Of a stretch of 64,000 nt of DNA, positions 5,606 through 34,238 are shown one piece after another. The DNA is from an uncultured Klebsiella sp. (lineage in GTDB: Bacteria > Pseudomonadota > Gammaproteobacteria > Ga0077536). The stretch is from the NCBI GenBank assembly GCA_964555355.1, contig CAZKRY010000001.1, forward strand, positions 343,177-407,176, read 5' to 3'. A program made the translations under genes and the position numbers. Under the pieces are notes generated by a model that saw nothing but the letters and a program-made list of their open reading frames with translations, made no database searches and was not told where the DNA came from. Within the stretch, counting starts at the first letter, position 1; every line of letters begins with the position of its first letter.

Positions 5606-5610
5606 CGAAC

Positions 5611-6518: not shown

Positions 6519-6529
6519 GAATTTCCTGT

Positions 6530-6577: not shown

Positions 6578-6582
6578 CCTGT

Positions 6583-7233: not shown

Positions 7234-7237
7234 CTCG

Positions 7238-8302: not shown

Positions 8303-8312
8303 GGCTCTGACT

Positions 8313-8888: not shown

Positions 8889-8916
8889 AGCGAATAAACG
8901 CGACACCTAGGACACC

Positions 8917-10023: not shown

Positions 10024-10043
10024 TTCAACTTCCGGAGCACAAC

Positions 10044-11039: not shown

Positions 11040-11059
11040 GTCGGCGGCGCAGACACACG

Positions 11060-12934: not shown

Positions 12935-12958
12935 CCATGCGAAAGAACGGAATTCGAT

Positions 12959-15081: not shown

Positions 15082-15084
15082 CTC

Positions 15085-16707: not shown

Positions 16708-17546
16708 TGCTGTCTGCGCGAGGGAATTCTGATATGACAGCGAAAAATGAATGGAAAGCGTCCCTTCATTCTTTCTTCGATCAGAGAGGTGGGGAGTTAT
16801 TGTCACATCCTACCTTGCAGGAGTTATGTTACGTGAGCGGTCGCGATCCGCGATTGTGGTCCGATCCCGTAATGTATGGCGATCTGATAAGAAGCATCGT
16901 TGACAGTCTGAGTGTCAGCAAATCGGCTTCGATTCTGGAAGTCGGCTGCGCGGCCGGATTTATCGCCAACGGCGTCGCCCCACTAGTTAAAAACTATATT
17001 GGTATCGACCTCGCGCGGAATGCTCTCGTTGCCGCAGGGAGGCTCGGTCTCCCCAATGCGGTGTTTAAGCATTCAGACGGAAGCTCCGTTCCACTTCAGA
17101 GTAGTTCCGTGGATGCGGCATTTTGTTACGACGTGGTAACCAACTTTCCCTCGTTCGACGACGTCGAGCCTCTAATTGCCGAAATGCTTAGAGTAGTTCG
17201 ACCTGGTGGTAAGGTCATGATTGGTTCCGTGCCGGATGCAGCTTGCCGGGATGAATACGAGCAGCGGATACAAGAGGTGGCAAAAGAACTCGATGCTAAA
17301 TTTGGTCCATCAGTACCACAAGTCAATGGTGTCAAGACGAATTCTCTCCTAAAGGGCGTGATTCGCCATTTATTTCGAAGACCGAGTGCACCGCCGCCGG
17401 CCATCTTTTGCTACTACTTTAGTCGAGCAGACTTTAGGGCGGTTGCGCAGCGTTTCGGGGTACGGTTGGTGTTTGGTGAAATCCACGAGATGAATCCGTA
17501 TCGAGGGCACCGCTTTAACGCAATTTTCCAACGTGTGGGGTCATGA
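16704..17546 (+). CDS. Class I SAM-dependent methyltransferase
   Basis: Motif I ILEVGCAAG, motif post-II VRPGGKVMIG. The GTG/ATG start overlaps the radical-SAM stop (GTGATG). Confidence 0.75.
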   Translation: MMLSARGNSDMTAKNEWKASLHSFFDQRGGELLSHPTLQELCYVSGRDPRLWSDPVMYGDLIRSIVDSLSVSKSASILEVGCAAGFIANGVAPLVKNYIGIDLARNALVAAGRLGLPNAVFKHSDGSSVPLQSSSVDAAFCYDVVTNFPSFDDVEPLIAEMLRVVRPGGKVMIGSVPDAACRDEYEQRIQEVAKELDAKFGPSVPQVNGVKTNSLLKGVIRHLFRRPSAPPPAIFCYYFSRADFRAVAQRFGVRLVFGEIHEMNPYRGHRFNAIFQRVGS

Positions 17547-18667
17547 GGCCGATAGCCCATGCATTAATTGATGCGGTCGATTGGGAAAAGACTTGCGGAC
17601 TTGCATCCGAAGCATGGCTTTTCCATCGATATGATTGGGTTGGAATAGAGGCGGACAATTGGGCGGAGTCAAATGCGTCATTCGCTCTCTTTGACAACCG
17701 AGGGATGATAGGAATTGCCCCGCTTTATGGCGTTGTTAGCGGCGACGAGCGCCTAGTACATTCCGGTATTCATCGCCATGCGGGCTTGGCACTAATCGAT
17801 GGCTTGTCCCTCGGAGACCAGCGCGCCGCGCGCGATGCATACATCAAGAGAGTTTTACGGGTGGCGCGCGACTTCGGCGCACACCGGATCCAATTGAATG
17901 CGCATAACCTGAGTCCGGCCATGCGCGAATTTCCCCGTGAAGAGATCCCGTTCTTCGTGCAGAACTATGGCTTTCATTCTGGCCTTGCCTTCGGTCCAAC
18001 CGGGATCCAGGCCGCACCCGGCATGTCCACGTGCAATGCCGATCAAATCGTCGATCTAGCGCCCTCCGAAGATCAGTTGTTCGCAAATCTTGACGAGGCC
18101 TGCCGCCGGGCGGTCCGCAAGGCGCAAAAAAGCGGGTTGAGCGCGCGTGAGGCCACGCAGGAAAGCGACGTTCGGGCGTACTACGCGCTGGCAGAACTAT
18201 CGGCACGTCGCACTGGCGAGACTTTGCCGCCATACGACTATTACGCACGCATCTGGAGAACGTTCCACGCCCGCGGTCATTGCCGTATTCTTTTCGCACA
18301 AATAGGCGGAGAGCGTCTCGCGGCATTGATGCTGTTCGCGGATCGCGGCGCGATGAACTTCGCGGCGGGTGTCACGGCGCCGGAAGCGCTGCCGCTGCGC
18401 GCCAATGATTTCTTGCACTGGGAGGCCATCCGCCTCGCAAAACGCGAACGCCTTTCGCACTACCGCCTCGGTCCGATTTTCCCGGAGGTACCGTCGTCCT
18501 GGCCGATTGCCATGGTGTCGCGTTTCAAGGGCAAATTCGGTGGCCGCTCGGTGCCGATCGTTCAAGGCAGTTTTTTTCTCGACCCCGCGCGCTATCTGCA
18601 GCAGGGCATCGCGCAGTTGACCGCGCTGTGTTCGCAACCGCGCGACGAAGTCGTGCAGGATGACTGA
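17543..18667 (+). CDS. FemAB/BioF2-like GNAT-fold acyl(aminoacyl)transferase-family protein
   Basis: ~370 aa with two GNAT-like halves, of a size and pattern resembling Fem/PF13480-type proteins. ATGA overlap with the upstream methyltransferase gene. Confidence 0.45.
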   Translation: MRPIAHALIDAVDWEKTCGLASEAWLFHRYDWVGIEADNWAESNASFALFDNRGMIGIAPLYGVVSGDERLVHSGIHRHAGLALIDGLSLGDQRAARDAYIKRVLRVARDFGAHRIQLNAHNLSPAMREFPREEIPFFVQNYGFHSGLAFGPTGIQAAPGMSTCNADQIVDLAPSEDQLFANLDEACRRAVRKAQKSGLSAREATQESDVRAYYALAELSARRTGETLPPYDYYARIWRTFHARGHCRILFAQIGGERLAALMLFADRGAMNFAAGVTAPEALPLRANDFLHWEAIRLAKRERLSHYRLGPIFPEVPSSWPIAMVSRFKGKFGGRSVPIVQGSFFLDPARYLQQGIAQLTALCSQPRDEVVQDD

Positions 18668-18696
18668 CAGTTAGCACAACTGAGACGATTCGAAGT

Positions 18697-20094
18697 ATGA
18701 ATTCCACCGACCACGACGCGGCGTTGGAACTGCTGAAGCATCTCGCGCGCGTATTCGGTCTCGCCCCAAGCGTGTTCGATTTGCAGCGCGCATGCGTCAT
18801 CCGCGGAAATCTTGCCGCGACGGGCGAAATTTCCCCACGCTGCGAACTCATCGTTCTGCTGGCACCCGATGCCGCGGCCTGTGCACAGCTCGATCTGGTC
18901 GCTTCAGTGCACCCACCGATATCGGATTTGTTTGCGGTCAACGAACGACCCTCGTTGCGCATGTCGTCGCTGCACGGTTATCAAACTTTTGTTGACGATA
19001 AGGGACACTGTCGGCCAGTGGTGCGGGATGCCGCGGGTCGCAACGCATGGATCGAAGTTGAGCAGGGCGGCCGTCGCTGGCTCGTGGTTGGCACAGCGCT
19101 TGTGGCTGACCTCGAACGCTTTCGTCAGGGTGACCCTGCGCGAGCCAACGATCGTTCGCAGAGTGCGAAATGGGATTTTGCGTTCGAGCGCCCGAACTAT
19201 CTGTTCGAGGCCCAGTTGCAGGGGCTCGATGCGCGCGTGCGCCACGCGGACTACTGGTGCGAAACGCTCGTCGGCGCGATTGCCGGCGCCATCCCGACAG
19301 CGCGAAGGCCGATCCTGCCGGGCGATGCACCGGGCGCGCTCGTGATCACCGGCGACGACGATCAGGCTTACCTCGAAAAATATGCGGCACAGCAGGAGGC
19401 GCTTGCAGGACTGCCAATTACCTATCTGATGCATCCGCTGACGCGACATGACCGCCAGAGCGCCAGGCGCATGTTTGGATGTCGACGAGTGGAACTCGGC
19501 ATCCATCCGGACGCGCTCGAGACGCCTTCGGCGTATGGCTCTCGGCTCGATGAACAAGTCCGTTGGTTCGAGTCTCGTTTTGGCTTTAGAGCCACGAGCG
19601 TGCGCAATCACGGCTTTCTCAACGATGGGTATTGGGGACATCTACCCGCTTGGCAGACCGCAGGAATCCATATCAGCTCAAATATTCCGGGCTTGGACGG
19701 TAATTTGTTGAACGCATCAATGTTGCCAGGGCGCGTACTGTTCGATGGCGTCTTGTCATCGCACTGGTCCGTTCTGACGACATTTGGCGACGGCATGGTG
19801 TTCGCGCTTGGCTTATCGGACATGGCGGCGTCGGCGCGCGTCGGCGACAGCGCCGCCGCGATCGTCGCGTCCCGCGTGCCGGGCGTCATCGTCGTAAATC
19901 TCCATCCGCAGAACATTGACAGCACTCGACGGATTCACGATGTCCTGCGCGAGATTGCACAAATGGGCTTTGTAGCGTGGACGCTCGCCGATTGCTGGCG
20001 CTGGTTCAATGAACTTGATCGGCGCGAAACGCCGCGGCCGTTCCTACACCGAGCGGCAGTGACTGCGCGCAGTCTGTTGCGAGTAAGATCGTGA
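18697..20094 (+). CDS. Hypothetical protein; the C-terminal half resembles the polysaccharide deacetylase/CE4-like fold
   Basis: ITGDDD, HPD, RNHG and NLHP motifs are spaced as in NodB-type deacetylases. The N-terminal 200 aa are of unknown function. Confidence 0.35.
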   Translation: MNSTDHDAALELLKHLARVFGLAPSVFDLQRACVIRGNLAATGEISPRCELIVLLAPDAAACAQLDLVASVHPPISDLFAVNERPSLRMSSLHGYQTFVDDKGHCRPVVRDAAGRNAWIEVEQGGRRWLVVGTALVADLERFRQGDPARANDRSQSAKWDFAFERPNYLFEAQLQGLDARVRHADYWCETLVGAIAGAIPTARRPILPGDAPGALVITGDDDQAYLEKYAAQQEALAGLPITYLMHPLTRHDRQSARRMFGCRRVELGIHPDALETPSAYGSRLDEQVRWFESRFGFRATSVRNHGFLNDGYWGHLPAWQTAGIHISSNIPGLDGNLLNASMLPGRVLFDGVLSSHWSVLTTFGDGMVFALGLSDMAASARVGDSAAAIVASRVPGVIVVNLHPQNIDSTRRIHDVLREIAQMGFVAWTLADCWRWFNELDRRETPRPFLHRAAVTARSLLRVRS

Positions 20095-21683
20095 CTTTTG
20101 TTAAGACTGCCACTTTGTCCTGGTCCGCGAACCTGCAAACTGGCTGGCGTAACTATCAATGGCGCAGGCTGAACGGATTGCGCGAAGCGCAACGGTTGGA
20201 GGTGTTGTGGCGCGGTGCTCCACCGGTTGAGCGCTTCGACTCCTGGGACCCGGCTCCATGGCGTCACCCGTGGCTCACTCCGGATAATCTACGCGCAATG
20301 CGCGACTACAGCGAAACGTGCCTCACACGTTGGCAACACGAAGCCGACACGCCTCATGTCGGGCAATCGGAACGCTACGCGTTCATCGGCAACCTCGCGA
20401 ATAACATGTACATGCGTGCGCGTCCGCTGCGCCGGCTTGGCCTCGACATCGACGTCTATTTGCACCCTCAGGATCACTATGTGATGAGCCAACCGGGCTG
20501 GGAGGAATTGCACGGACTGATCGAAAGTTCCGAGACAGATATGCGGCGGTTGCGTGAGCAGGGGGTAACCCTGCCAACGGTGCCTGGAGTCTATCAGTCG
20601 CCAGAGTCCGCACCGATTTCCGCGCAAGAGGCATATCTACGCTACCCGCATTTGTCGGCGCGCGATGTCCTGCGTTGGCTGCCATACCTGAACGGACACG
20701 ACTGGCTGCATGAACTCGCGGGCTACGACGCATTGCTGTGCGCACAGTCAACCTTCGTCGGATTGTTGTCCGGCCAACCGTATGTGGCCGCGCACGTCGG
20801 CGGCGATATCTGGTATGAATGTTCGCGCGGCGACTTACTCGGCAGGCTGCAACTCGAAGCCTATCGTCGCGCTGCGGTAATGCTCGCGTCGAACCCGTGG
20901 AGCTTCGCTCACGCGCGACGCTACGGCTTGTGTAACGCCATCTATGTCCCGCTGGTACTCGACGAAGAGTTCTATGCGCCAGGTCCGAGCCCGTTTCGCC
21001 AGACCTGGATGAACTCGAGCGGTGGCGACTTTTTTGTGTTCAGCGCGGTTCGTCAGAACGATGCGATTAAGGGAACGCTCACCGGACTCGAGGGCTTCGC
21101 GCGTTTCGCAGCGAACCGGCCGGGCGCCAGGCTGGTCATCGTCGAATGGGGCCAGCAGTCCGACCTCAATCTAGAACGGTTCGCAGCACTCGGTATCAGC
21201 GACAAAGTTATCCGTGTGCCGATTGCCGGAAAGCGGCGCGTTGTCGACTACCTGCGTTCGGCCGACTGCTCAATCGACCAGTTTACGCTCGGCTATTACG
21301 GCGCTAGCGCCCTCGAGGCCATGGGTTGCGGCCTGCCTGTCATCATGCGTATCGAACACGCGCAGTACGCCGCATTATGTCGCGCCGGTGCACCGCCGGT
21401 GGTCGAGGCGGCGACAGCCGGAGAAGTTGCCTCGGCGCTTGAACGGTTAAGAGCGAACGTCGATCTTCGTCGCGCCACAGCGAGTGCGCAGCGAGATTGG
21501 TTTGTGGCCGCCCATGGGGCCAAGGCCTGGTATCCGGCGCTCGTGGCGATGTTGCGTGTGACAGCGACTGGGCGTCGGGAGCGCTTCGCGCATTCACCGC
21601 TGCGGATGCGTCTTTCGACGGTAGAACGCGACTATCACACGCAGGGTCTGGCCCGCGCCCCGAAATTTCCAAACTATCAATGA
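20091..21683 (+). CDS. GT-B fold glycosyltransferase (GT4-like), paralog 1 of 3
   Basis: N-terminal IGNLANNMY motif shared with the other two paralogs. C-terminal donor-binding domain (EAMGCGLPVIM). GTGA overlap with the upstream gene. Confidence 0.55.
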   Translation: MTFVKTATLSWSANLQTGWRNYQWRRLNGLREAQRLEVLWRGAPPVERFDSWDPAPWRHPWLTPDNLRAMRDYSETCLTRWQHEADTPHVGQSERYAFIGNLANNMYMRARPLRRLGLDIDVYLHPQDHYVMSQPGWEELHGLIESSETDMRRLREQGVTLPTVPGVYQSPESAPISAQEAYLRYPHLSARDVLRWLPYLNGHDWLHELAGYDALLCAQSTFVGLLSGQPYVAAHVGGDIWYECSRGDLLGRLQLEAYRRAAVMLASNPWSFAHARRYGLCNAIYVPLVLDEEFYAPGPSPFRQTWMNSSGGDFFVFSAVRQNDAIKGTLTGLEGFARFAANRPGARLVIVEWGQQSDLNLERFAALGISDKVIRVPIAGKRRVVDYLRSADCSIDQFTLGYYGASALEAMGCGLPVIMRIEHAQYAALCRAGAPPVVEAATAGEVASALERLRANVDLRRATASAQRDWFVAAHGAKAWYPALVAMLRVTATGRRERFAHSPLRMRLSTVERDYHTQGLARAPKFPNYQ

Positions 21684-22744
21684 GCAGCGAGCTGACTGTC
21701 CGTTACTACCTAGCAGGCGAGCTGCCGATGGCCGAATACGAAGGCTGGCTCGCGAACCGCCGCAACGCGCTGATCTACGCCGCGCCGATGTTCCATCGCT
21801 TCCTCGGTGCGGCGGTTGGTGGTGAGTGTCATTATTTGATCGCGCGGCGCGGAGATTCGCTATGCGGTGCGCTAGCATTTTTTAGACGCGATGTGCTGGG
21901 CATCGGCTGTGTCGTCAACAGTCTACCCTGGTACGGCACACACGGTGCTTGCATTGGTGTCGACGCAGACGATGTCGCTACCCGAGTTTCTCTTATCGGT
22001 ACTTTCCGCGATTACACGCGTGAGGCGCGACCACTGTCATCGACGCTAATCCTCACGCCCGAAGAATCGCTGCACGCTGACGAGTACACAGCGGGCCAAG
22101 CGCACGTCGTTACCGATGGTCGTATTGGACAGTGGACGCGTCTGCCGCAAAGCGGCAGTGCACCTGATCTTGCGGCGACATTGCTGCAGAAAACTCGTAA
22201 CCTCGTCAACAAGTCACTACGCCAAGGCTTTCGCGAAGAAATTGGGGATGAATCAGACGCAGCGTGGGAATTTCTCGGTAACGTGCATGCGGAGAATCTA
22301 CGGGCGATAGGCGGCAAGGCAAAACCATGGGCGCATTTCGAAGCCTTACGTGCTGAGATCCCGCTACCACATCGCCGCTTAACGATCGCCTGGCTCGGCG
22401 ATGAACCCGTTGCCGCACTCCTGCTTCTCGCGTTTAACGAGACAGTGGAATACGTAACTCCGGTGATCCGGGCCGAGTATCGTTCGCAGCAACCGCTGTC
22501 GTTTTTGATCTGGCAAGGCATGCTCTGGGCTATGCAGCAAGGTTTTCGCTGGTGGAACTGGGGCGGTACCTGGAGCACCCAGACGAACCTACTACATTTC
22601 AAGGCGGGTTGGGGCGCGCTCGAACGGCCGTACACTTATGTCATCAGCGCATCGCCGGACGCGCTCACGCAGTTTCGTACGGGGTTCGACGAACTCGCAC
22701 AGGCTTTTCCTTACTACTACCTTTATCCGCACGGTAGTCTTTGA
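21680..22744 (+). CDS. FemAB/BioF2-like GNAT-fold acyltransferase-family protein (second copy)
   Basis: The start is reset to ATG 21680, whose ATGA overlaps the upstream stop; the ORF-track start 21497 would overlap the upstream gene by 190 nt. Similar length and architecture to 17543..18667. Confidence 0.45.
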   Translation: MSSELTVRYYLAGELPMAEYEGWLANRRNALIYAAPMFHRFLGAAVGGECHYLIARRGDSLCGALAFFRRDVLGIGCVVNSLPWYGTHGACIGVDADDVATRVSLIGTFRDYTREARPLSSTLILTPEESLHADEYTAGQAHVVTDGRIGQWTRLPQSGSAPDLAATLLQKTRNLVNKSLRQGFREEIGDESDAAWEFLGNVHAENLRAIGGKAKPWAHFEALRAEIPLPHRRLTIAWLGDEPVAALLLLAFNETVEYVTPVIRAEYRSQQPLSFLIWQGMLWAMQQGFRWWNWGGTWSTQTNLLHFKAGWGALERPYTYVISASPDALTQFRTGFDELAQAFPYYYLYPHGSL

Positions 22745-23799
22745 TGAGCACGATCCCCCACAGTCGCCCAACGCTCGAGCATCACGACATTGAACGTATT
22801 ACTGCGCAATTCGCCTCAGGCATGGTTGCCGAAGGCGAACTGACGGCGGCAGTCGAAGCCCGGTTGGCTCAGCGCTGGCGCATGGTCGCCGCCACCGCGA
22901 CAGGGTCCGGCACGCAAGCGCTTGTTCTCGCGCTCGCCGCGCTCGGTGTCGACAGTAGCGCCGAGGTGATATGCCCGGACTATGTATGCCCGGAGGTGCT
23001 CGCGGCGATCGAGGCGCGTGGAGCCACGCCCGTGCTAGTCGACATTGGCGAAGACTATTTCCCTTCGCGGGACAGCCTCGTGGGTGCGATAACCTCCCGT
23101 ACTGGCGCCATCGTGCTGCCATTTTTGTTTGGGCTCTATAAGCCACTAGACGGTTTGCGGGATCTAGGGGTGCCGTTGATCGCCGATTGCGCGCAGTTTT
23201 TCCCCGCGCAAAATTCCGCGGTCGACGTGGCTGCGGACCTCATCGTGCTTTCCTTCGAGGGCACCAAGTTGTTGACGAGCGGAGAAGGTGGAGCCGTGCT
23301 CGCGGAGAGTGCATCACTTGGCGCGCGAGTCGCCAAGTACAAACGTCTAGACGATGGACCCTACAAGCGAAACCTTTATCCCTTCTCCGATCTGCAGGCA
23401 GCTCTCCTCGACGCGCAGCTCGATCGAATTGACGAATTTCTTGACCGGCGCCATCGGCTCGCGGAGCATTACAAAACTGGGCTACAACTGGCGCCGCATA
23501 TCTCCTGTCCCGGCTGGCTAGCGCCGTACTCCTGCTTCTTTCGGTATCCGTTGCGCATTGAGAACGCGCCCGACGAGTTGGTCGCGCGCCTGATCGAGTT
23601 CTGTGGCGCGCGCGATGTCGCTGTGCGCAGACCTGTAGACACACTGCTGCACAGACTGCGTCCGCAAGCCATGGACTTCCCTGGCGCCGAACGGGCATGG
23701 CGCGAGACGCTGTCGATACCGATTTACCCTGGGCTTGCCGCAACCGAGCAGACCCGGGTCATCGACGTCGTCAACGAAGCATTGGCCGCCTGCGGCTAG
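22744..23799 (+). CDS. DegT/DnrJ/EryC1/StrS-family aminotransferase (short form)
   Basis: PLP-lysine region SFEGTKLLTSGEGG. ATG 22744 overlaps the upstream stop (tgATGa). Confidence 0.7.
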   Translation: MSTIPHSRPTLEHHDIERITAQFASGMVAEGELTAAVEARLAQRWRMVAATATGSGTQALVLALAALGVDSSAEVICPDYVCPEVLAAIEARGATPVLVDIGEDYFPSRDSLVGAITSRTGAIVLPFLFGLYKPLDGLRDLGVPLIADCAQFFPAQNSAVDVAADLIVLSFEGTKLLTSGEGGAVLAESASLGARVAKYKRLDDGPYKRNLYPFSDLQAALLDAQLDRIDEFLDRRHRLAEHYKTGLQLAPHISCPGWLAPYSCFFRYPLRIENAPDELVARLIEFCGARDVAVRRPVDTLLHRLRPQAMDFPGAERAWRETLSIPIYPGLAATEQTRVIDVVNEALAACG

Positions 23800-23808
23800 G
23801 AGGACCTA

Positions 23809-24807
23809 TTGGACGAACCAATACGAGTCGAACAGCTGCGAAAGGATTCTCGTCTGGAGCACCGTCTCGCGGAGGTGAACGCGCTGCTGGCTCCCGTCGA
23901 GGAAAAGTTGCAACACGAGATTGCTGCGGTCGAGCCTCCGTTGGTATTCGTCGTCGGTATGGCGCGGTCAGGCACGACGCTCGCCGGTCAGCTCTTGGCG
24001 AGCGCTGGGTTTGGTTATGTTAGTAATTTCGTGGCCCGCTTCTGGCGTGCACCCGCACTCGGCGCGACTTTGCAACGCACGGTGTTGAAGGTTGGAGACG
24101 CACTGAGCAGTAGCTTCCAGTCACACCATGGGGTGACGGATGGTTGGTTCGAACCGCACGAGTTCGGGTATTTCTGGGACCGCTGGTTCGATCTGGGGCA
24201 GGCCACGCACAAGCTTGATGTCGAACTGCGTTCGCGTGTCGATCGGGAGGGCCTCCATCGCGCGGTGAGTGCGCTACAGCAGGTGGAAGGGCGTCCCTTT
24301 ACCTTTAAGAACAATACGTGGTGCAGCCTACAGGCAAGTTGGTTGGCAAACCTTTTCCCGCGTTCGATCTTCGTGGTGTGTCGTCGTCCGGCGTGCTGGA
24401 TCGCGCAGTCGCTGTGCCTCGCGCGCGAGGAACGTTATGGCAGCCGCGATAGCTGGTGGTCGATCCGCCCGAGTACCTACGCGTCGTTCGTCGGGTTGCC
24501 GTGGTGGGAGCAGATCGCCGCACAGGTCATCGATTTCGACATTGAGATGGATGCCGAACTGACGCAGATCCCGTCCAGTAGGCTCATCGAAATCGAGTAT
24601 GGCGATTTATGTGCCAACCCTCGCGGGCTTATTGCACGGACCGCCTCGCAACTCCTGGGCATGGGGATACAATTCACCCCGGTGTCCGAACGAATTCCCG
24701 AACGACTCGCGTCGCGTGATACCCAGCGGCTCGTCGATGCAGACTGGCGGCGACTTAACGACGCAATTGAACAGCGGGCACAGTCCCGTCAGCGCAAGGT
24801 GACTTGA
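23809..24807 (+). CDS. Sulfotransferase-family protein (PAPS-dependent)
   Basis: 5'-PSB P-loop-like motif VVGMARSGTT near residue 45, and a downstream RxxxxS-type region; ~330 aa. Confidence 0.6.
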   Translation: MDEPIRVEQLRKDSRLEHRLAEVNALLAPVEEKLQHEIAAVEPPLVFVVGMARSGTTLAGQLLASAGFGYVSNFVARFWRAPALGATLQRTVLKVGDALSSSFQSHHGVTDGWFEPHEFGYFWDRWFDLGQATHKLDVELRSRVDREGLHRAVSALQQVEGRPFTFKNNTWCSLQASWLANLFPRSIFVVCRRPACWIAQSLCLAREERYGSRDSWWSIRPSTYASFVGLPWWEQIAAQVIDFDIEMDAELTQIPSSRLIEIEYGDLCANPRGLIARTASQLLGMGIQFTPVSERIPERLASRDTQRLVDADWRRLNDAIEQRAQSRQRKVT

Positions 24808-25955
24808 TCATGCAGATAACTTTTCCCTCCTTCGACGAGGCCGAAATTTCGGCGCTGCGCGAATGCCTCGGCAGCGGCTGGGTGACCCAGGGTCCGATGG
24901 TGGCGCGCTTCGAAAAGCTCATCGCCGAATTTCATCAGGTTCAACATGCGCTCGCCACCACCTCCTGTACCGCCGCCTTGCATCTTGCGACCGCCGCGCT
25001 GCAACTGAGCCGCGGCGACGAGGTGCTGGTTCCGGCTTTCACGTGGGTGACCTCCGCGCATTGTGCAGAGTACATGGGCGCACGGGCTTGTTTCGTGGAC
25101 GTCGATCCGAACACGTTCAACTTAGACCCAGTCGCGCTCGAGGCCGCAATCACGCCCCGATCGCGCGCGATTGTCGCGGTGCATTTGTTCGGGCTGGCGG
25201 CGCCGATGGACGAGATCATGGCCATTGCGAAGCGCCACGGACTCGCCGTGATCGAGGACGCGGCCTGTGCGATCGGAACGCGCTACCAAGGCAAGCCCAT
25301 TGGCGGCATCGGGGACTTCGGATGTTTCTCGTTTCATCCGCGCAAGGTGGTGACGACAGGCGAAGGCGGCATGGTGACGACCAACAACGCGGAGTACGCC
25401 CGACGCGTCCAAAGTCTGCGTAACCATGGCGCAACCGGTCTGCCGCCGGTAACTGAAGCAGAGCCACATGGCCCATGGACCATGGCGCGATTTGAGATGC
25501 TCGGGTTCAACCTCCGACTGTCGGATATCCAAGCCGCCGTTGGTGTCGCCCAAATGGCGAAGCTCGAAACCCTATTAGCCGAACGTAAGGCCGCGGCGGT
25601 CCATTACTCATCCATGCTCGAAAATATCGATGAGTTGGCTGTCCCCGACACACTCGCGCTCGACGGGCATACCTACCAGTCTTACGTCGTTCGCGTGTTG
25701 AAGGGCGGTCGTGTGCGCCGCAATCGATTGATGGCCGCACTCGACGCAGCGGGGATCCAGACACGTCCCGGCACGCATGCCGTGCACCGTCTTGATTATT
25801 ATGCCCGCAAGTACGAGTTAGCTCCGGAGGCATATCCGAACGCCGCACTATGCGAGGACACCACTATCACGCTGCCAATCTTCCCCGGCATGCAGGAGAG
25901 GGATCGAGAATCTGTCGTGGCTTGCATAAGAGACGGCTTGGTTAAATCGAATTGA
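24804..25955 (+). CDS. DegT/DnrJ/EryC1/StrS-family PLP aminotransferase
   Basis: Typical DegT fold with PLP lysine (FSFHPRKVVTTGEGG). The TTG 24804 start overlaps the upstream stop; an alternative ATG is at 24810. Confidence 0.8.
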   Translation: MIMQITFPSFDEAEISALRECLGSGWVTQGPMVARFEKLIAEFHQVQHALATTSCTAALHLATAALQLSRGDEVLVPAFTWVTSAHCAEYMGARACFVDVDPNTFNLDPVALEAAITPRSRAIVAVHLFGLAAPMDEIMAIAKRHGLAVIEDAACAIGTRYQGKPIGGIGDFGCFSFHPRKVVTTGEGGMVTTNNAEYARRVQSLRNHGATGLPPVTEAEPHGPWTMARFEMLGFNLRLSDIQAAVGVAQMAKLETLLAERKAAAVHYSSMLENIDELAVPDTLALDGHTYQSYVVRVLKGGRVRRNRLMAALDAAGIQTRPGTHAVHRLDYYARKYELAPEAYPNAALCEDTTITLPIFPGMQERDRESVVACIRDGLVKSN

Positions 25956-25965
25956 GTCAGTTCGG

Positions 25966-27636
25966 ATGACTGAAGACGCCGCCGTCGAGACGCCGTACGC
26001 CTTCCATTGGGTCCAGGACTTCATTGGCCGACACGGTCGTAAGCCCCGCATTCTACACATCGGCAACATCGCGAATAACGCGTTCATCAACTGCAAGTTG
26101 TTGAACGCCGCCGGACTGGACTGCGATCTCATCTGTTACGACTACTACCATCTCATGGGCTGTCCGGAGTGGGAGGAAGCGGACATCGACGTAGTGCCGG
26201 AAGACCAGGCGTTTCCGGATTGGACCAAAATTGACCTACGGGGCTATCAACGCCCGCGCTGGTTCGTTCAAGGTCCGTTGAGTCTATGCATCGACTATTT
26301 GTTGGCGCGCCGACAGGGGCGTCGGGTTGCCGAGATTTGCCGCTGGCGAGAACTTGCGCGCTTCAATCACACACAGACTGCAGCCATGGAGCCAATCGAT
26401 CGTGCACTGGCACTATCGGAATGGTCACTCGGAGCTCCTGGCCAATTTTGGCGCGGGACGATATCGCTTTGTGTACGGGTGGCGCAGCGCGCCCGCCGGA
26501 TGGCATGCTTAGTTGCGAGGCATCTGCGCCGCCTATCGAGAGACGCCTTGTTGGCGTCACCATTGAGATCGCTGAAGCGATGGATCGTCGCGGTCGAAGC
26601 AAGCGTGTTTCGAGCCAGTCGTGCATTTCGCGTCAAGGCTCAACTCCACCGTTCGCTGGACGTAGAAAGCATCTGCACGCGTTTCGGGGGCTACTTTCCG
26701 AACCGCGCGGACCAATTACAGCCAGCGGAACTCGACCCCTATTTACAAACGATCCCGCGCTGGAGCGCGCTTTTTGATCACTACGATCTGATCCAAGCTT
26801 ATGCAACCGACCCCTTACTTCCCGCGCTCACCGGGCATCGCGCGGTTGCTTTCGAGCACGGCACGTTGCGCACCTTTTTGTGGGGCGACACGTCACTGCA
26901 TCGACTTACGTCGCTTGGATACCGGCACGCCGCGCATGTCTTTGTGACCAACGGCGATTGCCTCGAACACGCAGTGCGCCTCGGTGTGCCGAGCTATAGC
27001 GCGATGTTGCATCCGGTTGATGTTGATCAGCATCGTACAGCTGGGCTAGAACTGTCGGCGACGATTCGCGAAGAGTACGCGGCGGACTGTCTTTTGCTCT
27101 GTCCGCTCCGGCACGATTGGGCCATCAAGGGCACGGACATCCATCTCCGCGCTCTGCCGTTGATCAAGGCCCGATACAATGGGCGATTAGTTGTGCTCCT
27201 GACGGAATGGGGTGCGGACCTCGCCGCGAGCAAAGCGCTCGTGCGCGAACTCGGCTGCGAGCAGAACGTACGTTGGATCGCGCCGCTAGGGCGCATCCGG
27301 CTAATCGCGCATACGCGCGCCGCCGACGTCGTTCTCGACCAAATCGCGCTACCGCACTTCGGGGCGACGGCGCCGCAGTCACTGGCGGTCGGCACGCCGG
27401 TCGTCAGCAGCTACGATCCACGCAGTACGGAGTGGATAGTCGATGAGCCGGCGCCCATTTTGCCGGCCTTCAATCCAGAGGAAGTCGCGGAGGCCGTGCT
27501 GACCGCCATGGATCCTGCTTGGCGTATCGAACACGCTCGGCGCGCACGGCAGTGGATTGATCATCATCATCATCACCGGCGGGTGGTCGCAGACCATCTC
27601 AAAATCTATGAACGGCTCATTAAGGCCACGGAGTAA
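25966..27636 (+). CDS. GT-B fold glycosyltransferase (GT4-like), paralog 2 of 3
   Basis: N-terminal RILHIGNIANNAF...CDLICYDYYHLMGCPEWEE motif. C-terminal GT-B domain (TEWGADL...VGTPVVS). His-rich C-terminal tail HHHHHRR. Confidence 0.55.
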   Translation: MTEDAAVETPYAFHWVQDFIGRHGRKPRILHIGNIANNAFINCKLLNAAGLDCDLICYDYYHLMGCPEWEEADIDVVPEDQAFPDWTKIDLRGYQRPRWFVQGPLSLCIDYLLARRQGRRVAEICRWRELARFNHTQTAAMEPIDRALALSEWSLGAPGQFWRGTISLCVRVAQRARRMACLVARHLRRLSRDALLASPLRSLKRWIVAVEASVFRASRAFRVKAQLHRSLDVESICTRFGGYFPNRADQLQPAELDPYLQTIPRWSALFDHYDLIQAYATDPLLPALTGHRAVAFEHGTLRTFLWGDTSLHRLTSLGYRHAAHVFVTNGDCLEHAVRLGVPSYSAMLHPVDVDQHRTAGLELSATIREEYAADCLLLCPLRHDWAIKGTDIHLRALPLIKARYNGRLVVLLTEWGADLAASKALVRELGCEQNVRWIAPLGRIRLIAHTRAADVVLDQIALPHFGATAPQSLAVGTPVVSSYDPRSTEWIVDEPAPILPAFNPEEVAEAVLTAMDPAWRIEHARRARQWIDHHHHHRRVVADHLKIYERLIKATE

Positions 27637-27641
27637 TTGGC

Positions 27642-28433
27642 ATGTCCATTACCGACGACGCACAACTGCTTAAAGAGCGTTACGAGAGTATCGCGCTCAG
27701 CTTAGACGACAAGACCACCGCATCCGACTATCTGCTGCGGGAACTCGAAATCGATCTCGGCGCCCAATACATGCACCCCGATCAGCAGGTTCTCGATGTC
27801 GGCTGTGGCTTGGGTTACGCGCTCCGTCAGTACGCGCAGCGCTGCAAGGTATCCGGCGTCGGTCTCGATTACGCCGAGAACATGGTCAAGTCGGCGCACC
27901 AGCGGGTTGTGGACACGATGCCCGACGCGCCGATCGAATTTGTGCATGGTTCGGTCGCGGACATGCCGCTTGATAGCGGGCGCTTTGATGTCGTCACCAG
28001 TCATCGCTGCCTGATGGCATTGCTCGATTGGGACCTCCAACGCGCAGCGTTGCGAGATATACATCGCGTCCTAAAGCCGGGCGGCATCCTCGTACTCATG
28101 GAAGGGACGCTCGACGGCCTTGAACGCCTTAACTTCTATCGCCGGCTGTTTGGTCTAGCGGAAATCGAAGCGGACGGACGTGATCGCCTACTGACGCGCA
28201 AGTTCCGCGAGAAAGCGTTGCTGGATGAAGTCGGGACTGGGTTTGAACTGCTACGCACCCAACGCTTCGGGATGTACTACTTCCTGACGCGCATTGTGCA
28301 ACCGCTGTTCGTCGCGCCGGACGCCCCGCGTTACGACCACAAGCTCAATGAAATCGCGCATCGTATCGCCAAAGCCATCCCCGATCTTGACGGCATCGGT
28401 CACCTGGTCGGCTTTGTGCTGCGGAAGCGGTAG
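27642..28433 (+). CDS. Class I SAM-dependent methyltransferase
   Basis: Motif I VLDVGCGLGY, motif II LKPGGILVLME. Confidence 0.75.
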   Translation: MSITDDAQLLKERYESIALSLDDKTTASDYLLRELEIDLGAQYMHPDQQVLDVGCGLGYALRQYAQRCKVSGVGLDYAENMVKSAHQRVVDTMPDAPIEFVHGSVADMPLDSGRFDVVTSHRCLMALLDWDLQRAALRDIHRVLKPGGILVLMEGTLDGLERLNFYRRLFGLAEIEADGRDRLLTRKFREKALLDEVGTGFELLRTQRFGMYYFLTRIVQPLFVAPDAPRYDHKLNEIAHRIAKAIPDLDGIGHLVGFVLRKR

Positions 28434-28440
28434 TCCGCGC

Positions 28441-29151
28441 ATGATCTGCCTGAGCTTAGATACGGATCACATGAGCGAGGCGCGCATGCGTGACTTTCTC
28501 GCTGAATTCACGTTGCCGGGCCAAGCCACATTTTTCTGCACCGGAGCGTACGACTCCCTGGCCGCTACGGATCACGAGTTGTGTCCGCATCCGTATCTTG
28601 GGCCGAGCAACGATTGGAACGAGGAGCTTGCGTCGATGCGACGAATGTTTCCGGCCGCCCGCGGCTGGCGCTCGCATTCCTGTGTATTCAGCCACACGCT
28701 CGCGGAGCAGGTTGCCAGCCTTGGTTATGCCTACGCAAGCACCCAGGATGATCTCGGCTGCGCGAACCTGCGTCCGCATCGGCACGCGTGGGGTCTGTGG
28801 CAAATGCCCATCTATTACATGGACAACCTCGACTTCTCCCATTCACGATTCTGGCGAGACTCATCACACCGCCCGTTCGACCAGACGGTTATCGACACCG
28901 CCCTGCGTGGCGATGCCCTGTATATCTTCGATTTCCATCCGATCCATTTAATGCTGAATAGCCATTCCGCGGAGTCGTATTTCGTGCGGCGAGATGCGTT
29001 CAAAGGCGGTGCGGACATTGCGAGCCTGCGCTGTCCGGAGCCTGGGGTGCGGGATTTTTTCTTGAATCTGATCGATGCGATGGCGCGGGCGGGAATGCGG
29101 AGTTACGCGCTGCGCGAAGCGCTTGACGTCCATATTGCGCGCGGCTGCTGA
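28441..29151 (+). CDS. Putative polysaccharide deacetylase (CE4)-like protein
   Basis: The start is set at ATG 28441; the ORF-track start 28294 overlaps the upstream gene. SLDTDH, CPHPY and FHPIHL motifs are spaced like CE4 motifs 1, 2 and 5. Confidence 0.35.
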   Translation: MICLSLDTDHMSEARMRDFLAEFTLPGQATFFCTGAYDSLAATDHELCPHPYLGPSNDWNEELASMRRMFPAARGWRSHSCVFSHTLAEQVASLGYAYASTQDDLGCANLRPHRHAWGLWQMPIYYMDNLDFSHSRFWRDSSHRPFDQTVIDTALRGDALYIFDFHPIHLMLNSHSAESYFVRRDAFKGGADIASLRCPEPGVRDFFLNLIDAMARAGMRSYALREALDVHIARGC

Positions 29152-29175
29152 ACGAATGAGCAAGGACAGCATGGA

Positions 29176-30978
29176 ATGAACGCGACGGTTGGCGTTGAGA
29201 CGGGAATCGTGGTCAAGACAGACGATACGCCGTTCGATCCCGAGGCTTGGGTAAGCGCCTTTTCGGCACGCCATGGTCGTCGTCCGCGCGTGCTGCATAT
29301 CGGCAACATCGCCGCAAACGCCTACAACAACGCGAAAATGATGAACACGCTCGGCTTCGAGTGCGAAGTGTTGTGCGCAGACTACTATCACATGATGGGT
29401 TGTCCCGAGTGGGAGGACGCGGACTTTGAGGGCGATATCGGTGATCACTTCGCGCCCACTTGGTTTAAAGTCAATCTCCGCGGTTACGAGCGGCCTCGAT
29501 GGTTCGCTCAAGGGCCGCTTGAATTGTGCCTACGTTATTTGGGCGCCCGCGCAGCGGGGCGCCAACGTGAAGCGGATTATCTCTGGCGCGCGCTCGGAGT
29601 TTTTAATCGTACGCGCGCGCCGGGGCCGCTCGAATCCTTGCAGAGCACGCTTTATCAGAGTCGTCAATTAGCACGCCGTATAGCCGCTGTCCTAGATTCT
29701 CCGGTGCGCCGTGCACGGGTCATCGCGCGGCTAGAAGAAATCGGGACGCGTTGGCGCCATCAGTGGCGAAGACGCCACGCGCTGGCAGCATCGATGGGCG
29801 CCGTGCGCAATCTGAGTCGCGCCATCGCCGGAAACGCTTTGCTGCTCATCGCAGCAGTGCTTCGCGCCTGTTTTACCTACTTGCCTGGAGGGCGGAACGC
29901 GCGAGAAGTATCGACTGCCGGCGAGAATGCGAGTGCGCAGCTTGCGGCGATGCTTTGCGATGACTTCAAACGACGTTTTCCTTCTCGAACCGATACCCTT
30001 GTTGTCACTGATGTGGCCGCGTACGCCTCGAATATGCCTTCATGGCAGGAAGTCTTTGCCTCGTATGACTTAGTCCAAGGATATGCGACCGATCCGATTT
30101 TTCCGATGTTGACCGGTCATCCCTACTGCGCTTTCGAACATGGAACTTTGCGCGAATTACCGTTTCGCAACGACGCGCTTGGCAGAATGACCGCGTTAGC
30201 CTATGCGCGCGCACAGCAAGTATTTGTCACTAACTCCGATTGCATCGATAACGCCCACCTTCTCGCCGGTTCGCGCGCGATACCTTTACCACACCCGTTC
30301 GACGAAGATCGCGCTGTTCGCGTGATTGGAGCGGACGCGCTTCGCACAAGCCTAAAGGCCGAACTTAATGTCGACATCCTCGCTTTTTTCCCGACTCGTC
30401 ACGATTGGGTAGTGGGCACGGGTTTCGCCGACAAAGCGAACGATCGTTTTTTCCAAGCCCTGGCGCGACTTCATCGCGACGGCTTCCGTGTTGGGGTTGT
30501 TTGCTGCGAATGGGGACGCAACGTCGTCGAAAGCAAGGCGTTGATTCGCGACCTAGGGCTTGAGAATTGCGTGAAGTGGGTTGCGCCGATGGGCGTCGTG
30601 CGTTACGAGCGCCACGTGCTCGCGTGTGATTTTGTCGTTGATCAATTCTTGCTCGGCGCGTTCGGCGGCGTCACTTTTCGTGCGCTGGCCGCCGGTCGAC
30701 CGGTGCTGACCTGGCTACGTTCGGACGAAGTCGCACGAAGCTTTGGCACGTGTCCGCCAATAATCAACTGTCAGTCGACAGAGGATATCGTTCAAGCATT
30801 GGGCCGAGCATTAAGTGTCGCCGGAGAATTACAACGCATCGGCGCTGACGCGCGGCGCTGGGTTGAGCGATACCACAGCGGGCGCGCTACGGTTACCACG
30901 CAATTACGCGCATACGCACGAATAATTGAGGAGTCACGATCATCGGAAAACTTGTCGCCGAAGAGGATGTTGAGGTGA
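29176..30978 (+). CDS. GT-B fold glycosyltransferase (GT4-like), paralog 3 of 3
   Basis: The RVLHIGNIAANAYNNAK...CEVLCADYYHMMGCPEWED N-terminal motif is near-identical to that of paralog 2. C-terminal GT-B domain. Confidence 0.55.
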   Translation: MNATVGVETGIVVKTDDTPFDPEAWVSAFSARHGRRPRVLHIGNIAANAYNNAKMMNTLGFECEVLCADYYHMMGCPEWEDADFEGDIGDHFAPTWFKVNLRGYERPRWFAQGPLELCLRYLGARAAGRQREADYLWRALGVFNRTRAPGPLESLQSTLYQSRQLARRIAAVLDSPVRRARVIARLEEIGTRWRHQWRRRHALAASMGAVRNLSRAIAGNALLLIAAVLRACFTYLPGGRNAREVSTAGENASAQLAAMLCDDFKRRFPSRTDTLVVTDVAAYASNMPSWQEVFASYDLVQGYATDPIFPMLTGHPYCAFEHGTLRELPFRNDALGRMTALAYARAQQVFVTNSDCIDNAHLLAGSRAIPLPHPFDEDRAVRVIGADALRTSLKAELNVDILAFFPTRHDWVVGTGFADKANDRFFQALARLHRDGFRVGVVCCEWGRNVVESKALIRDLGLENCVKWVAPMGVVRYERHVLACDFVVDQFLLGAFGGVTFRALAAGRPVLTWLRSDEVARSFGTCPPIINCQSTEDIVQALGRALSVAGELQRIGADARRWVERYHSGRATVTTQLRAYARIIEESRSSENLSPKRMLR

Positions 30979-31859
30979 AGCGAGTAATGGTCGTTGGCGC
31001 CCAGGGATATCTTGGGCGGGCCTTTTGTCGAGTAGCGAGCGCCCGAGGACTACAAGTGTTCGCGGCCAGTTCTCGTGATGGAACAGGTCTCAATCCAACG
31101 ACCGGACTGGTGAGTGACGGCTTTGCGATACCGCCAAATACCGACACGGTTCTTTATCTCGCGCAATCGCCTTACTACCGCCATGTGCCGCAATATGCGG
31201 CGCATCTTATGACGGTCAATAGCGTTAGCGCCGTTGAGGTGGCGCGTCTCGCGACCGAAGCGGGCGTACGCCGCTTCATCTACGCCTCCACCGGCAGTGT
31301 TTACGAACCCAAATTTACGCCGCTCGCCGAAACAGCGCCGCTGTTGGAGACCGCATGGTATCCGTTGTCGAAAATTCTCGCCGAGAAGGCGCTCGCGTTG
31401 TTCAGACCCGCGCTCGATGTTTGTGCCGTACGCATTTTTGGAATTTACGGCCCCATGCAACAAGACAAGCTCGTGCCGAATCTTGTCAATCGATTGCGCG
31501 AAAATCAACCGGTGATTCTTCAGGCAAACCCCACAAATCCCGCTGATCGCGGCGGGCTGCGAATCTCGCTGTGCCATATCGACGACGCGTGCCAGGTGCT
31601 ACTGCAACTAATCGCGATCGCCGGACAATTACCGCACATTCTCAACCTTGGCGGCGATGAGGCAGTCGATCTGCGCACGCTGGCGACGCTGCTTTCGCGT
31701 CGACTTGGGGTCGCGGCAACCTTTACCGAAACCGATATCGAGCGGCATGGTGATCTCGTATGCGATGGAAGCTTGCTTGCATCGTTAGTAAAACCTGAAT
31801 TCAGGCCCATTGCAGAAGGCTTGCAGTATGTAGTCGATCCGCGCGAGGGTCGAGATTGA
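30975..31859 (+). CDS. NAD-dependent epimerase/dehydratase-family protein (SDR)
   Basis: VVGAQGYLG Rossmann motif and YxxxK (YPLSKILAE). GTGA overlap with the upstream gene; an alternative ATG is at 30987. Confidence 0.7.
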   Translation: MKRVMVVGAQGYLGRAFCRVASARGLQVFAASSRDGTGLNPTTGLVSDGFAIPPNTDTVLYLAQSPYYRHVPQYAAHLMTVNSVSAVEVARLATEAGVRRFIYASTGSVYEPKFTPLAETAPLLETAWYPLSKILAEKALALFRPALDVCAVRIFGIYGPMQQDKLVPNLVNRLRENQPVILQANPTNPADRGGLRISLCHIDDACQVLLQLIAIAGQLPHILNLGGDEAVDLRTLATLLSRRLGVAATFTETDIERHGDLVCDGSLLASLVKPEFRPIAEGLQYVVDPREGRD

Positions 31860-34199: not shown

Positions 34200-34238
34200 A
34201 AATCACGAAGCTATCGATAAGCATTGGAATAAAACATT

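Follow-up and report, generated by a model that had tools for sequence, protein, structure and literature searches.

A predicted PAPS-dependent sulfotransferase of the Sulfotransfer_3 type encoded within a Wzm/Wzt-type glycan biosynthesis cluster

The sulfotransferase gene occupies positions 23809-24807 on the plus strand of the window, the 64-kb stretch of DNA analysed here, and encodes a soluble protein of 332 amino acids with no predicted transmembrane segments. The reading frame opens with a TTG codon, five nucleotides after a Shine-Dalgarno sequence AGGAGG read from the sequence (23798-23803, plus strand), and the MDEPIR N-terminus of the product is common to its orthologs. The stop codon TGA (24805-24807) either overlaps the next gene, if that starts at TTG 24804, or abuts it, if the start is ATG 24810, and the gene is tightly coupled with both neighbours. 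Comparison with the 83%-identical ortholog in locus L001 gives a dN/dS ratio of 0.12; the ortholog in a Hydrogenophaga intermedia MAG displays 83% identity. The gene is real, intact and under constraint. Judged by its dN/dS ratio, ribosome-binding site and count of homologs, it is not a spurious reading frame in GC-rich DNA.

The gene belongs to a glycan biosynthesis cluster of 29 kb (7238-36194), in which all genes lie on the plus strand. The cluster begins with WbpB/D/E-like genes, an epimerase, an AsnB-like amidotransferase, Wzm/Wzt, a radical SAM gene, a methyltransferase and a FemAB-like gene; continues with an unknown gene for a 465-aa protein, a long GT4-like gene, a second FemAB-like gene, DegT, the sulfotransferase, DegT and another long GT4-like gene; and ends with a methyltransferase, a WbmS-like deacetylase, a long GT4-like gene, an epimerase, two GT4 genes and an AsnB-like amidotransferase. 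Besides Wzm/Wzt and the WbpB/D/E-like genes, it contains five glycosyltransferase-like genes, three DegT genes and two genes for AsnB-like amidotransferases. The Wzm-type ABC-2 permease (12959-13807, plus strand; Pfam ABC2_membrane, with a weak NCBIfam Wzm/RfbD match) is predicted to serve glycan export together with the Wzt-type ABC ATPase of 425 amino acids (13804-15081, plus strand), whose residues 42-239 match NCBIfam Wzt/RfbE at 197.9 bits. The presence of both transporter components alongside GT4-type genes places the cluster in the Wzm/Wzt pathway. Among the open reading frames of at least 200 amino acids in the window, neither a ligase nor an initiating phosphoglycosyltransferase was found, and Pfam searches at relaxed thresholds returned nothing for the 465-aa protein or for the N-terminal portions of the three long GT4-like proteins.

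The immediate neighbours of the sulfotransferase are two DegT-family genes, both matching Pfam PF01041 (DegT_DnrJ_EryC1). The upstream gene, DegT_B (22741-23799, plus strand; 162.8 bits), encodes a divergent PLP enzyme that retains the SFxxxK lysine motif and has TlmJ, DesV-like enzymes and ArnB as its nearest solved structures; it is conserved beside the sulfotransferase in 10 loci. The downstream gene, DegT_C (24804-25955, plus strand; 386.8 bits), encodes an aminotransferase of the C4-aminotransferase type, nearest in solved structures to perosamine synthetase (262 bits) and ArnB; its sequence keeps 60-91% identity across phyla, and it adjoins the sulfotransferase in 17 loci. Upstream of DegT_B lies FemAB2 (21680-22744, plus strand), a FemAB/GNAT-like acyl- or aminoacyl-transferase gene by its Pfam Acetyltransf_6 match (43.4 bits); its 62.5-bit match to NCBIfam pepcterm_femAB falls under the cutoff of that model, and searches of solved structures with the FemAB2-like protein gave no meaningful match. 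The two flanking DegT aminotransferases named in the original prediction are thus both in place, and the glycan context that it proposed on their account reaches past them, to the whole 29-kb Wzm/Wzt cluster and to a neighbourhood conserved across phyla.

The assignment of the product as a sulfotransferase, proposed from the sequence of its loop, is borne out by the Pfam search: residues 44-277 match Sulfotransfer_3 (PF13469) with E = 3.4e-13 and 50.8 bits, against a curated cutoff of 27 bits, a threshold also passed by the orthologs in loci L021 and L036. Of 1.84 billion cluster representatives, 2,567 match the protein at E <= 1e-3 and 409 do so at E <= 1e-30; with 258 relatives recovered when 185,579 species genomes were scanned by motif, the family is modest in size. 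Close characterized relatives were found neither in NCBIfam, where zero models match the protein, nor among solved structures. A single-sequence search of solved structures gave only chance matches (E >= 0.04), which made a family profile necessary; the profile retrieved TPST1/2 and the Stf-type, CurM and OLS sulfotransferases at E values of 1e-7 to 1e-5, in an alignment covering both the 5'-phosphosulfate-binding (PSB) loop and the 3'-phosphate-binding (3'-PB) motif. Our protein shares just 12-18% identity with solved structures. The AF2 model (pLDDT 94.6, pTM 0.93) displays the sulfotransferase fold and is separable from P-loop kinases. Domain, motifs and predicted fold together confirm the predicted membership of the product in the PAPS-dependent sulfotransferase superfamily, as a protein of the Sulfotransfer_3 type. 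The co-occurrence of the Sulfotransfer_3 match, the motif and the DegT flanks is well past chance expectation. Enzymes of this kind are already known in bacteria, and the gene is a further member of the family.

The predicted PSB loop, VVGMARSGTT (residues 48-57; 23950-23979, plus strand), follows strand E45-49 in the model, its core spanning G50-M-A-R53-S-G-T-T57, and aligns in the family profile to the TPST loop G-x-PRSGTTL, in agreement with its original reading as a 5'-PSB-type loop. Its form, G-x-x-R-S-G-T-T, has no Walker-A lysine and is therefore of the sulfotransferase 5'-PSB type rather than that of an NTPase P-loop. The likening of the loop to that of cytosolic enzymes did not hold, as it follows the R-x-G-T-T pattern of Sulfotransfer_3, TPST and NodH and not the K-x-G-T-T pattern of Sulfotransfer_1. 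Alignment A1 shows no variation at G50 or T57; R53 is found in 79 of 81 sequences and T57 in all 81. The family consensus of the loop is G-x-P-R-S-G-T-T, and the protein carries Ala52 in place of the proline (GMARSGTT), a substitution seen in 3/81 sequences. The MARSGTT variant is common to the whole closest clade (P0002-P0009, 51-84% identity), and is an old, maintained state.

Three further conserved elements could contribute to binding or catalysis. The predicted 3'-PB motif extends from R193 to S201 (RRPACWIAQS; 24385-24411, plus strand), both residues being present in 81/81 sequences; it aligns to the TPST motif RDGRxxxHS, and the model places R193 after strand E186-192 and S201 within helix H195-210. 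The family signature H117-E-F-G-Y-F-W123 (24157-24177, plus strand) was recognized by its conservation in alignment A1, whose sequences were gathered independently of this motif: E118, F119 and G120 do not vary and H117 shows conservation of 90% or more, making H117 and E118 candidate catalytic base residues. Lysine K167 (24307-24309, plus strand), retained in 79/81 sequences, comes within two positions of the 'CNKD' lysine of TPST in the profile alignment and may correspond to the lysine used in catalysis by TPST and the cytosolic SULTs. About 21 residues past the PSB arginine, where TPST has its catalytic glutamate, the family has a conserved asparagine, Asn73.

Genes for the supply of PAPS were sought within the window, where no cysD, cysN, cysC or cysH was found at E <= 1e-5. 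Four related loci carry an APS kinase gene (cysC), with or without cysDN, inside the cassette, beside the sulfotransferase. The APS kinase gene (Pfam PF01583, 221 bits) directly follows the sulfotransferase ortholog in Nostoc (L036) and in a member of Pseudomonadota (L021), and a Bradyrhizobium locus (L009) and locus L029 have cysD, cysN and cysC within the cassette. The embedding of APS kinase in four orthologous cassettes supports the PAPS dependence of the family, and we infer that the sulfotransferase of this window uses PAPS as well.

The core block of FemAB/GNAT-like gene, DegT, sulfotransferase and DegT is found again across many phyla. Synteny was counted in 80 related loci, drawn from many phyla: in 23 of them the sulfotransferase has a FemAB2-like gene no more than 1.5 kb away, its tightest syntenic partner, and in about 60 a DegT-family gene lies within 10 kb. 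The block is not tied to ABC export. On an Aliiroseovarius plasmid the sulfotransferase is followed by DegT in a cluster of the Wzx-flippase type, which also has two GNAT/FemAB-like genes, a deacetylase and an O-antigen-ligase-family gene and is without an ABC exporter. The recurrence of the core module in such a cluster suggests that the enzyme modifies a residue or precursor, whatever the export route. A distant member of the family is encoded on a Phycisphaera plasmid amid metal-resistance genes, without a glycan context.

The product is thus probably a PAPS-dependent sulfotransferase that works as a soluble protein in the cytoplasm and acts on a surface glycan ahead of export, at a residue or precursor derived from an amino sugar. 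The enzyme would act alongside the FemAB/GNAT-like acyltransferase and the C4-type DegT aminotransferases. Its amino-sugar-derived target would receive the sulfate while still a nucleotide sugar or, alternatively, once part of the glycan linked to undecaprenyl diphosphate. In the putative active site, the GMARSGTT loop, through R53 and T56/T57, would hold the 5'-phosphosulfate of PAPS, while R193 and S201 would hold its 3'-phosphate; either H117 or E118 would serve as the base and, aided by K167, activate a hydroxyl or amine of the acceptor, which would take up the sulfuryl group by in-line transfer as PAP is released. The Wzm/Wzt ABC transporter would export the finished sulfated polymer. The cluster likely produces a sulfated sugar polymer; we infer the identity of the acceptor, the stage of its sulfation and that the mature glycan keeps its sulfate, and the final polymer would then carry sulfate.

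The sulfate could instead terminate the chain, a single group on the non-reducing end stopping growth and being read by the C-terminal domain of Wzt. Capping has an established role in ABC-transporter pathways, as with the phosphate-methyl cap added by WbdD in E. coli O9a. The Wzm/Wzt exporter of the cluster agrees with such a role, as does the presence of a sole sulfotransferase among many modifying enzymes, and the Wzt ATPase has a C-terminal extension of about 180 amino acids with a weak match to Wzt_C (PF14524; 24.1 bits, E = 3.9e-5), below the Pfam cutoff of 30.4. We nonetheless regard a cap as unlikely, because the sulfotransferase accompanies FemAB-like and DegT genes rather than Wzt, which occurs in just 17 of the 80 loci, and because the core module also resides in the exporter-free Aliiroseovarius cluster. 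The Wzm/Wzt/methyltransferase segment, moreover, has a GC content unlike that of the sulfotransferase block and is far more diverged from L001, which indicates that the two evolve separately. Transient sulfation appears quite improbable. Here a hydroxyl of a sugar or acyl group would carry the sulfate as a leaving group until its displacement or elimination, giving a mature glycan free of sulfate. The CurM and OLS sulfotransferases work in this manner, as does sulfation-assisted ring formation; the second step might be performed by a flanking PLP enzyme, and the location of the gene between two PLP-dependent enzymes, of which DegT_B is divergent, would suit it. DegT_B, however, retains the ordinary aminotransferase lysine motif and is missing from many related loci that have the sulfotransferase; the nearest relatives of the enzyme are Stf1, Stf9 and TPST rather than CurM, and the data hold no specific pointer to an elimination or substitution step.

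If the enzyme instead sulfated a peptide, a small molecule or a tyrosine in a protein, after the manner of TPST and RaxST, the position of the gene in the cluster would be incidental. Sequence and structure searches both place TPSTs among the best matches, the PSB loop is TPST-like, and the Phycisphaera homolog lies outside glycan clusters; against this stand the synteny with sugar-modifying genes kept across many phyla, the translational coupling of the gene within an operon-like glycan cluster and the lack of a candidate peptide-substrate gene nearby, which make a non-glycan acceptor very improbable. It is harder still to credit that the gene is silent or its product non-catalytic, whether through a host without PAPS or through a disabling Pro-to-Ala change in the PSB loop. 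The absence of PAPS-synthesis genes from the window and the rarity of Ala52 would fit such an explanation, but the low dN/dS ratio, the retention of every predicted PAPS-contacting residue and the maintenance of MARSGTT throughout the closest clade speak for a working enzyme.

The modification of an amino-sugar-derived residue before export admits a bolder extension, which we put forward as possible but doubtful: that the FemAB/GNAT-like protein, the sulfotransferase and the C4-type DegT constitute a portable cross-phylum module making an undescribed sulfated amino sugar. The product may be a 4-amino sugar bearing an N-sulfate (sulfamate), for example, or one whose aminoacyl or hydroxyacyl substituent is O-sulfated. 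If so, the sulfated sugar of the module would enter surface glycans under Wzm/Wzt and Wzx export alike, and some hosts would supply the module with a cysC or cysDNC of its own.

Several known systems resemble the enzyme in part. The mycobacterial Stf1 (PDB 2zq5) and Stf9 (PDB 2z6v) are among the closest relatives, yet share just 12-18% identity with it; unlike the 332-aa enzyme described here, they are larger (365-392 amino acids), and their genes do not belong to a Wzm/Wzt glycan cluster. To our knowledge, their acceptors are not established. TPST1 and TPST2 (PDB 3ap1, 5wri) are animal Golgi membrane enzymes that sulfate protein tyrosines, whereas our enzyme is found in a sugar-biosynthesis context and its family has Asn73 in place of their catalytic glutamate. 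The CurM/OLS domains (PDB 4gbm, 4gox), found by both family profile and fold search, are likewise PAPS-dependent, but are polyketide synthase domains for which sulfate is a leaving group, and are more distant than Stf and TPST. Rhizobial LpsS can be grouped with the polysaccharide-cluster sulfotransferases. Rhizobial KpsS is named a fucosyl sulfotransferase in a review (PMC11625862). NodH, the Nod-factor sulfotransferase of Sinorhizobium meliloti, shares membership of PF13469 with our enzyme and has a PSB loop of the R-x-G type (PMC11625862). NodH acts on a carbohydrate acceptor with PAPS from dedicated cysDN/cysC-like genes (NodPQ), a parallel to the cysDNC genes of some orthologous cassettes, but its target is a lipochitooligosaccharide signal rather than the exported polymer proposed here; a relationship with NodH was not detected in a tblastn search of 72,556 plasmid records, which gave two matches, neither on a rhizobial plasmid. 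Marine sulfated capsule and O-antigen clusters, including that of Cobetia marina KMM 1449, combine embedded sulfotransferases with ABC export and copies of cysNDC (PMC11641403, PMC11766843), and the sulfated capsule cluster of Vibrio sp. KMM 8419 holds cysNDC, sulfotransferases and an ABC transporter (PMC11641403). The Vibrio and Cobetia clusters are Kps-type capsule systems, whereas the partners here are FemAB-like and DegT genes and the host is probably a betaproteobacterium of fresh water or soil; the likeness lies in the logic of the cluster.

Characterized sulfotransferases of bacterial polysaccharides are few, and just a handful of bacterial genera are reported to have sulfated glycans (PMC11625862). 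Our literature search found no paper joining sulfotransferase, FemAB, aminotransferase and polysaccharide, and none linking Hydrogenophaga with a sulfotransferase. The finding amounts to a well-supported annotation and a lead for glycochemistry, and leaves existing concepts unchanged. The partnership with a FemAB-like protein and a C4 aminotransferase, together with the occasional embedded APS kinase, offers a testable route to a defined sulfated sugar, and suggests that lineages of fresh water and soil have sulfated surface glycans too, in addition to marine bacteria, rhizobia and mycobacteria.

The gene at 23809..24807 on the forward strand is intact and under constraint, and it encodes a soluble member of the PAPS-dependent sulfotransferase superfamily. 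The original prediction had placed it exactly: the open reading frame in the window sequence spans 332 codons for amino acids and opens with TTG, 5 nt downstream of an AGGAGG ribosome-binding site. The preceding gene ends 10 nt before this start, and the sulfotransferase gene closes with a stop codon that either overlaps the start of the following gene or directly adjoins it. The predicted 5'-phosphosulfate-binding (PSB) motif VVGMARSGTT occupies residues 48-57 (window 23950..23979), follows the pattern G-x-x-R-S-G-T-T and lacks the lysine of the Walker-A NTP-binding loop. The Pfam domain search proposed with the prediction returned Sulfotransfer_3 (PF13469) with 50.8 bits, where the gathering score is 27; NCBIfam offered no model for the protein. 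The protein has no segment of sufficient hydrophobicity to span a membrane, and comparison with the 83%-identical ortholog from a Hydrogenophaga intermedia MAG gives a dN/dS of 0.12.

When 1.84 billion cluster representatives were searched exhaustively, 2,567 relatives emerged at E <= 1e-3, of which 409 reached E <= 1e-30, and PF13469 was present in all 150 relatives returned by a word-seeded search. Invariant or nearly invariant positions in a 33-sequence alignment include G50, G55 and T57 of the PSB loop, R193, S201 and the block E-P-H117-E118-F-G-Y-F-W. Across 81 sequences T57, R193 and S201 are each kept in 81/81, and R53 and K167 in 79 apiece; HEFGYFW was the pattern used to fetch these loci and is invariant among them by construction, the meaningful figure for its conservation being that of the independently collected 33 sequences. 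A single-sequence search of solved structures gave nothing meaningful. The family profile matched tyrosylprotein sulfotransferases (TPST), the Stf-type structures 2z6v and 2zq5, and the CurM and OLS domains at E 1e-7 to 1e-5, aligning the PSB loop with G-x-PRSGTTL of TPST and R193...S201 with R-D-G-R-x-x-x-H-S. The AlphaFold2 model is confident (mean pLDDT 94.6, pTM 0.93), and all 18 Foldseek matches to solved structures at E <= 1e-3 are sulfotransferases; the nearest, Stf1, Stf9 and TPST, differ widely in sequence (12-18% identity). A conserved Asn73 occupies the position of the TPST catalytic Glu, and H117 and E118 are candidates for the catalytic base.

The sulfotransferase lies inside a 29-kb same-strand run of tightly packed genes (7238..36194), which is an ABC-transporter-type surface-glycan cluster. 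It opens with a WbpB-like oxidoreductase, a hexapeptide acetyltransferase and a DegT aminotransferase, the WbpB/D/E-like genes together covering 7238-10023, and continues with an SDR epimerase/dehydratase, an AsnB-like amidotransferase (11060-12934), the Wzm permease with a 425-aa Wzt ATPase, a radical SAM protein (15085-16707) and a methyltransferase. There follow a FemAB/GNAT-like protein (FemAB1, 17543-18667), a 465-aa protein without a family match (18697-20094), a long GT4-like protein of 530 aa (20091-21683) and a second FemAB/GNAT-like protein (FemAB2, 21680-22744). Both immediate neighbours of the sulfotransferase are, as predicted, DegT/DnrJ/EryC1/StrS-family PLP enzymes: the upstream DegT_B (22741..23799, 162.8 bits) is divergent, and the downstream DegT_C (24804..25955, 386.8 bits) is nearest to perosamine synthetase and ArnB, two C4-aminotransferases that act on nucleotide sugars. 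Beyond them lie a second long GT4-like protein of 556 aa (25966-27636), a second methyltransferase, a WbmS-like deacetylase, a third long GT4-like protein of 600 aa (29176-30978), an SDR, two GT4 glycosyltransferases and a second AsnB-like amidotransferase (34239-36194). In ABC-transporter-type pathways the entire polymer is assembled in the cytoplasm; since PAPS is found there as well, a soluble sulfotransferase fits mechanistically.

Several other genes of the cluster deserve description. The two FemAB/Acetyltransf_6-type genes, unusual acyl or aminoacyl decoration of amino sugars being what the pair suggests, both find their best NCBIfam match, below its cutoff, in a PEP-CTERM-associated FemAB family; FemAB2 probably starts at ATG 21680, with a 4-nt overlap of the preceding stop, rather than as in the listed ORF 21497..22744. 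Of the two asparagine-synthase-like amidotransferases that bracket the cluster, the second reaches 592 bits with the XrtA/PEP-CTERM amidotransferase model, short of its cutoff of 817. Taken with the WbpB/D/E-like genes, the two may indicate amidated residues of diamino-uronic acid, in a possible resemblance to the Bordetella and Pseudomonas pathways. The three long GT4-like proteins are paralogous (second and third 37% identical over their full length) and share an N-terminal region of ~300 aa with the conserved motif HIGNIA-NA...YYH-MGCPEWE and no Pfam match; copies recur in related cassettes across phyla, and close to the C-terminus of the 556-aa protein there is a run of histidines, DHHHHHRR. 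The 465-aa protein matches nothing in Pfam or NCBIfam even at a relaxed threshold, and is conserved in cassettes (31-79% identity) of Beta-, Alpha- and Gammaproteobacteria, Cyanobacteria, Spirochaetota, Anaerolineae and Verrucomicrobiota. None of the genes described downstream of the cluster (36691-63502) has to do with making glycans; they encode an MscS-type channel, a PhyH dioxygenase, CoxM/CoxL-like molybdenum hydroxylase subunits, a hybrid histidine kinase, a sigma-54 activator, a P450 with an SDR, a CoA-transferase, two luciferase-like monooxygenases, an acyl-CoA synthetase and a 1212-aa adenylate-cyclase/AAA/TPR protein.

A scan for the HEFGYFW motif across 185,579 species, each represented by a single genome, found 258 relatives, of which the best 80 were fetched. 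The closest, the H. intermedia locus (83%), is collinear with the window from Wzm through the GT4 genes. A core block in the order FemAB2-like gene, DegT_B in some cases, sulfotransferase and DegT_C, often accompanied by AsnB-like, Wzm/Wzt and long GT4-like genes, recurs in Beta-, Alpha- and Gammaproteobacteria, Myxococcota, Cyanobacteria (Nostoc, Anabaena), Spirochaetota, Anaerolineae, Omnitrophota and Verrucomicrobiota. Among these best 80 of 258 loci, 23 have a FemAB2-like gene no more than 1.5 kb from the sulfotransferase, 17 have a DegT_C-like gene within the same distance, and ~60 have a DegT-family gene within 10 kb. The segment encoding Wzm, Wzt, the radical SAM protein and the methyltransferase (window 12001-18000) has a GC content of 0.50-0.515, against 0.55-0.61 elsewhere in the window, and its genes are 51-57% identical to those of the H. 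intermedia locus, against 70-95% for the block from FemAB1 to the 600-aa GT4-like gene; the radical SAM gene is missing from that locus. The export and possible capping segment seems to have been exchanged on its own, apart from the biosynthetic core. On the conjugative Phycisphaera mikurensis plasmid pPSMK1 a distant member of the family, 30% identical (8884-9909 of its locus), sits among copper and RND efflux genes, with no glycan genes nearby.

Searches with the E. coli K-12 proteins found no CysD, CysN, CysC or CysH homologs within the 64-kb window, and dedicated cysD/cysN/cysC are likewise absent from the H. intermedia locus. Four related loci, each with its own numbering, have PAPS-synthesis genes embedded in the cassette. 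An APS kinase (PF01583, 221 bits in each) lies directly between the sulfotransferase and DegT_C in Nostoc sp. LEGE 06077 (10969-11607) and a Pseudomonadota MAG (10887-11645), and cysD-cysN-cysC stand just upstream of the sulfotransferase block in Bradyrhizobium sp. Pha-3 (5029-7657) and an uncultured proteobacterium MAG (6019-8766). Such embedding is good evidence for PAPS dependence at the level of the family.

The predicted glycan context is supported by the 29-kb cluster around the sulfotransferase and by the conserved synteny. We consider it probable that a cytoplasmic, PAPS-dependent sulfotransferase would act jointly with a FemAB-like acyltransferase and one or more C4 aminotransferases on an amino-sugar-derived residue or precursor, and that the resulting sulfated surface glycan would be exported by Wzm/Wzt. 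The sulfate might instead be a terminal cap read by Wzt, as the extended Wzt with its sub-threshold Wzt_C match could indicate. This appears unlikely, as the core module is independent of Wzt, which is present in 17 of the best 80 loci. An annotated Aliiroseovarius plasmid carries the core in a cluster that encodes, in place of the ABC exporter, an oligosaccharide flippase together with an O-antigen-ligase-family protein; there DegT comes directly after the sulfotransferase, beside a pair of GNAT/FemAB-like genes and a gene for a polysaccharide deacetylase. It follows that the module does not depend on the export route, which speaks for the modification of a sugar residue or of a precursor rather than for a cap confined to the ABC pathway.

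Transient sulfation, with the sulfate serving as a leaving group, has a precedent in the CurM and OLS relatives; nothing specific supports it here, and we regard it as improbable. That the acceptor is not a glycan is very improbable in view of the conserved synteny, and a silent enzyme is scarcely to be expected given a dN/dS of 0.12 and intact motifs.

Bacterial sulfotransferases of this kind are known. NodH belongs to the same Pfam family, PF13469 (PMC11625862), and shows no detectable pairwise similarity to the window protein (tblastn, 72,556 plasmid records); a review names rhizobial and mycobacterial examples (PMC11625862). Sulfotransferases in polysaccharide clusters of marine bacteria, with or without cysDNC, have been described (PMC11641403, PMC11766843), and a sulfated-capsule cluster has been published for Vibrio sp. 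KMM 8419, in which cysNDC accompany sulfotransferases and an ABC transporter (PMC11641403). Our literature search found no description of the association of FemAB-like, sulfotransferase and DegT genes. It is a tentative and rather doubtful proposal that this conserved set of three produces a sulfated amino sugar not described before, which might be N-sulfated or bear its sulfate on an aminoacyl group. Hardly a surprise to the specialist, the finding amounts to a sound annotation and offers glycan chemists a useful lead.
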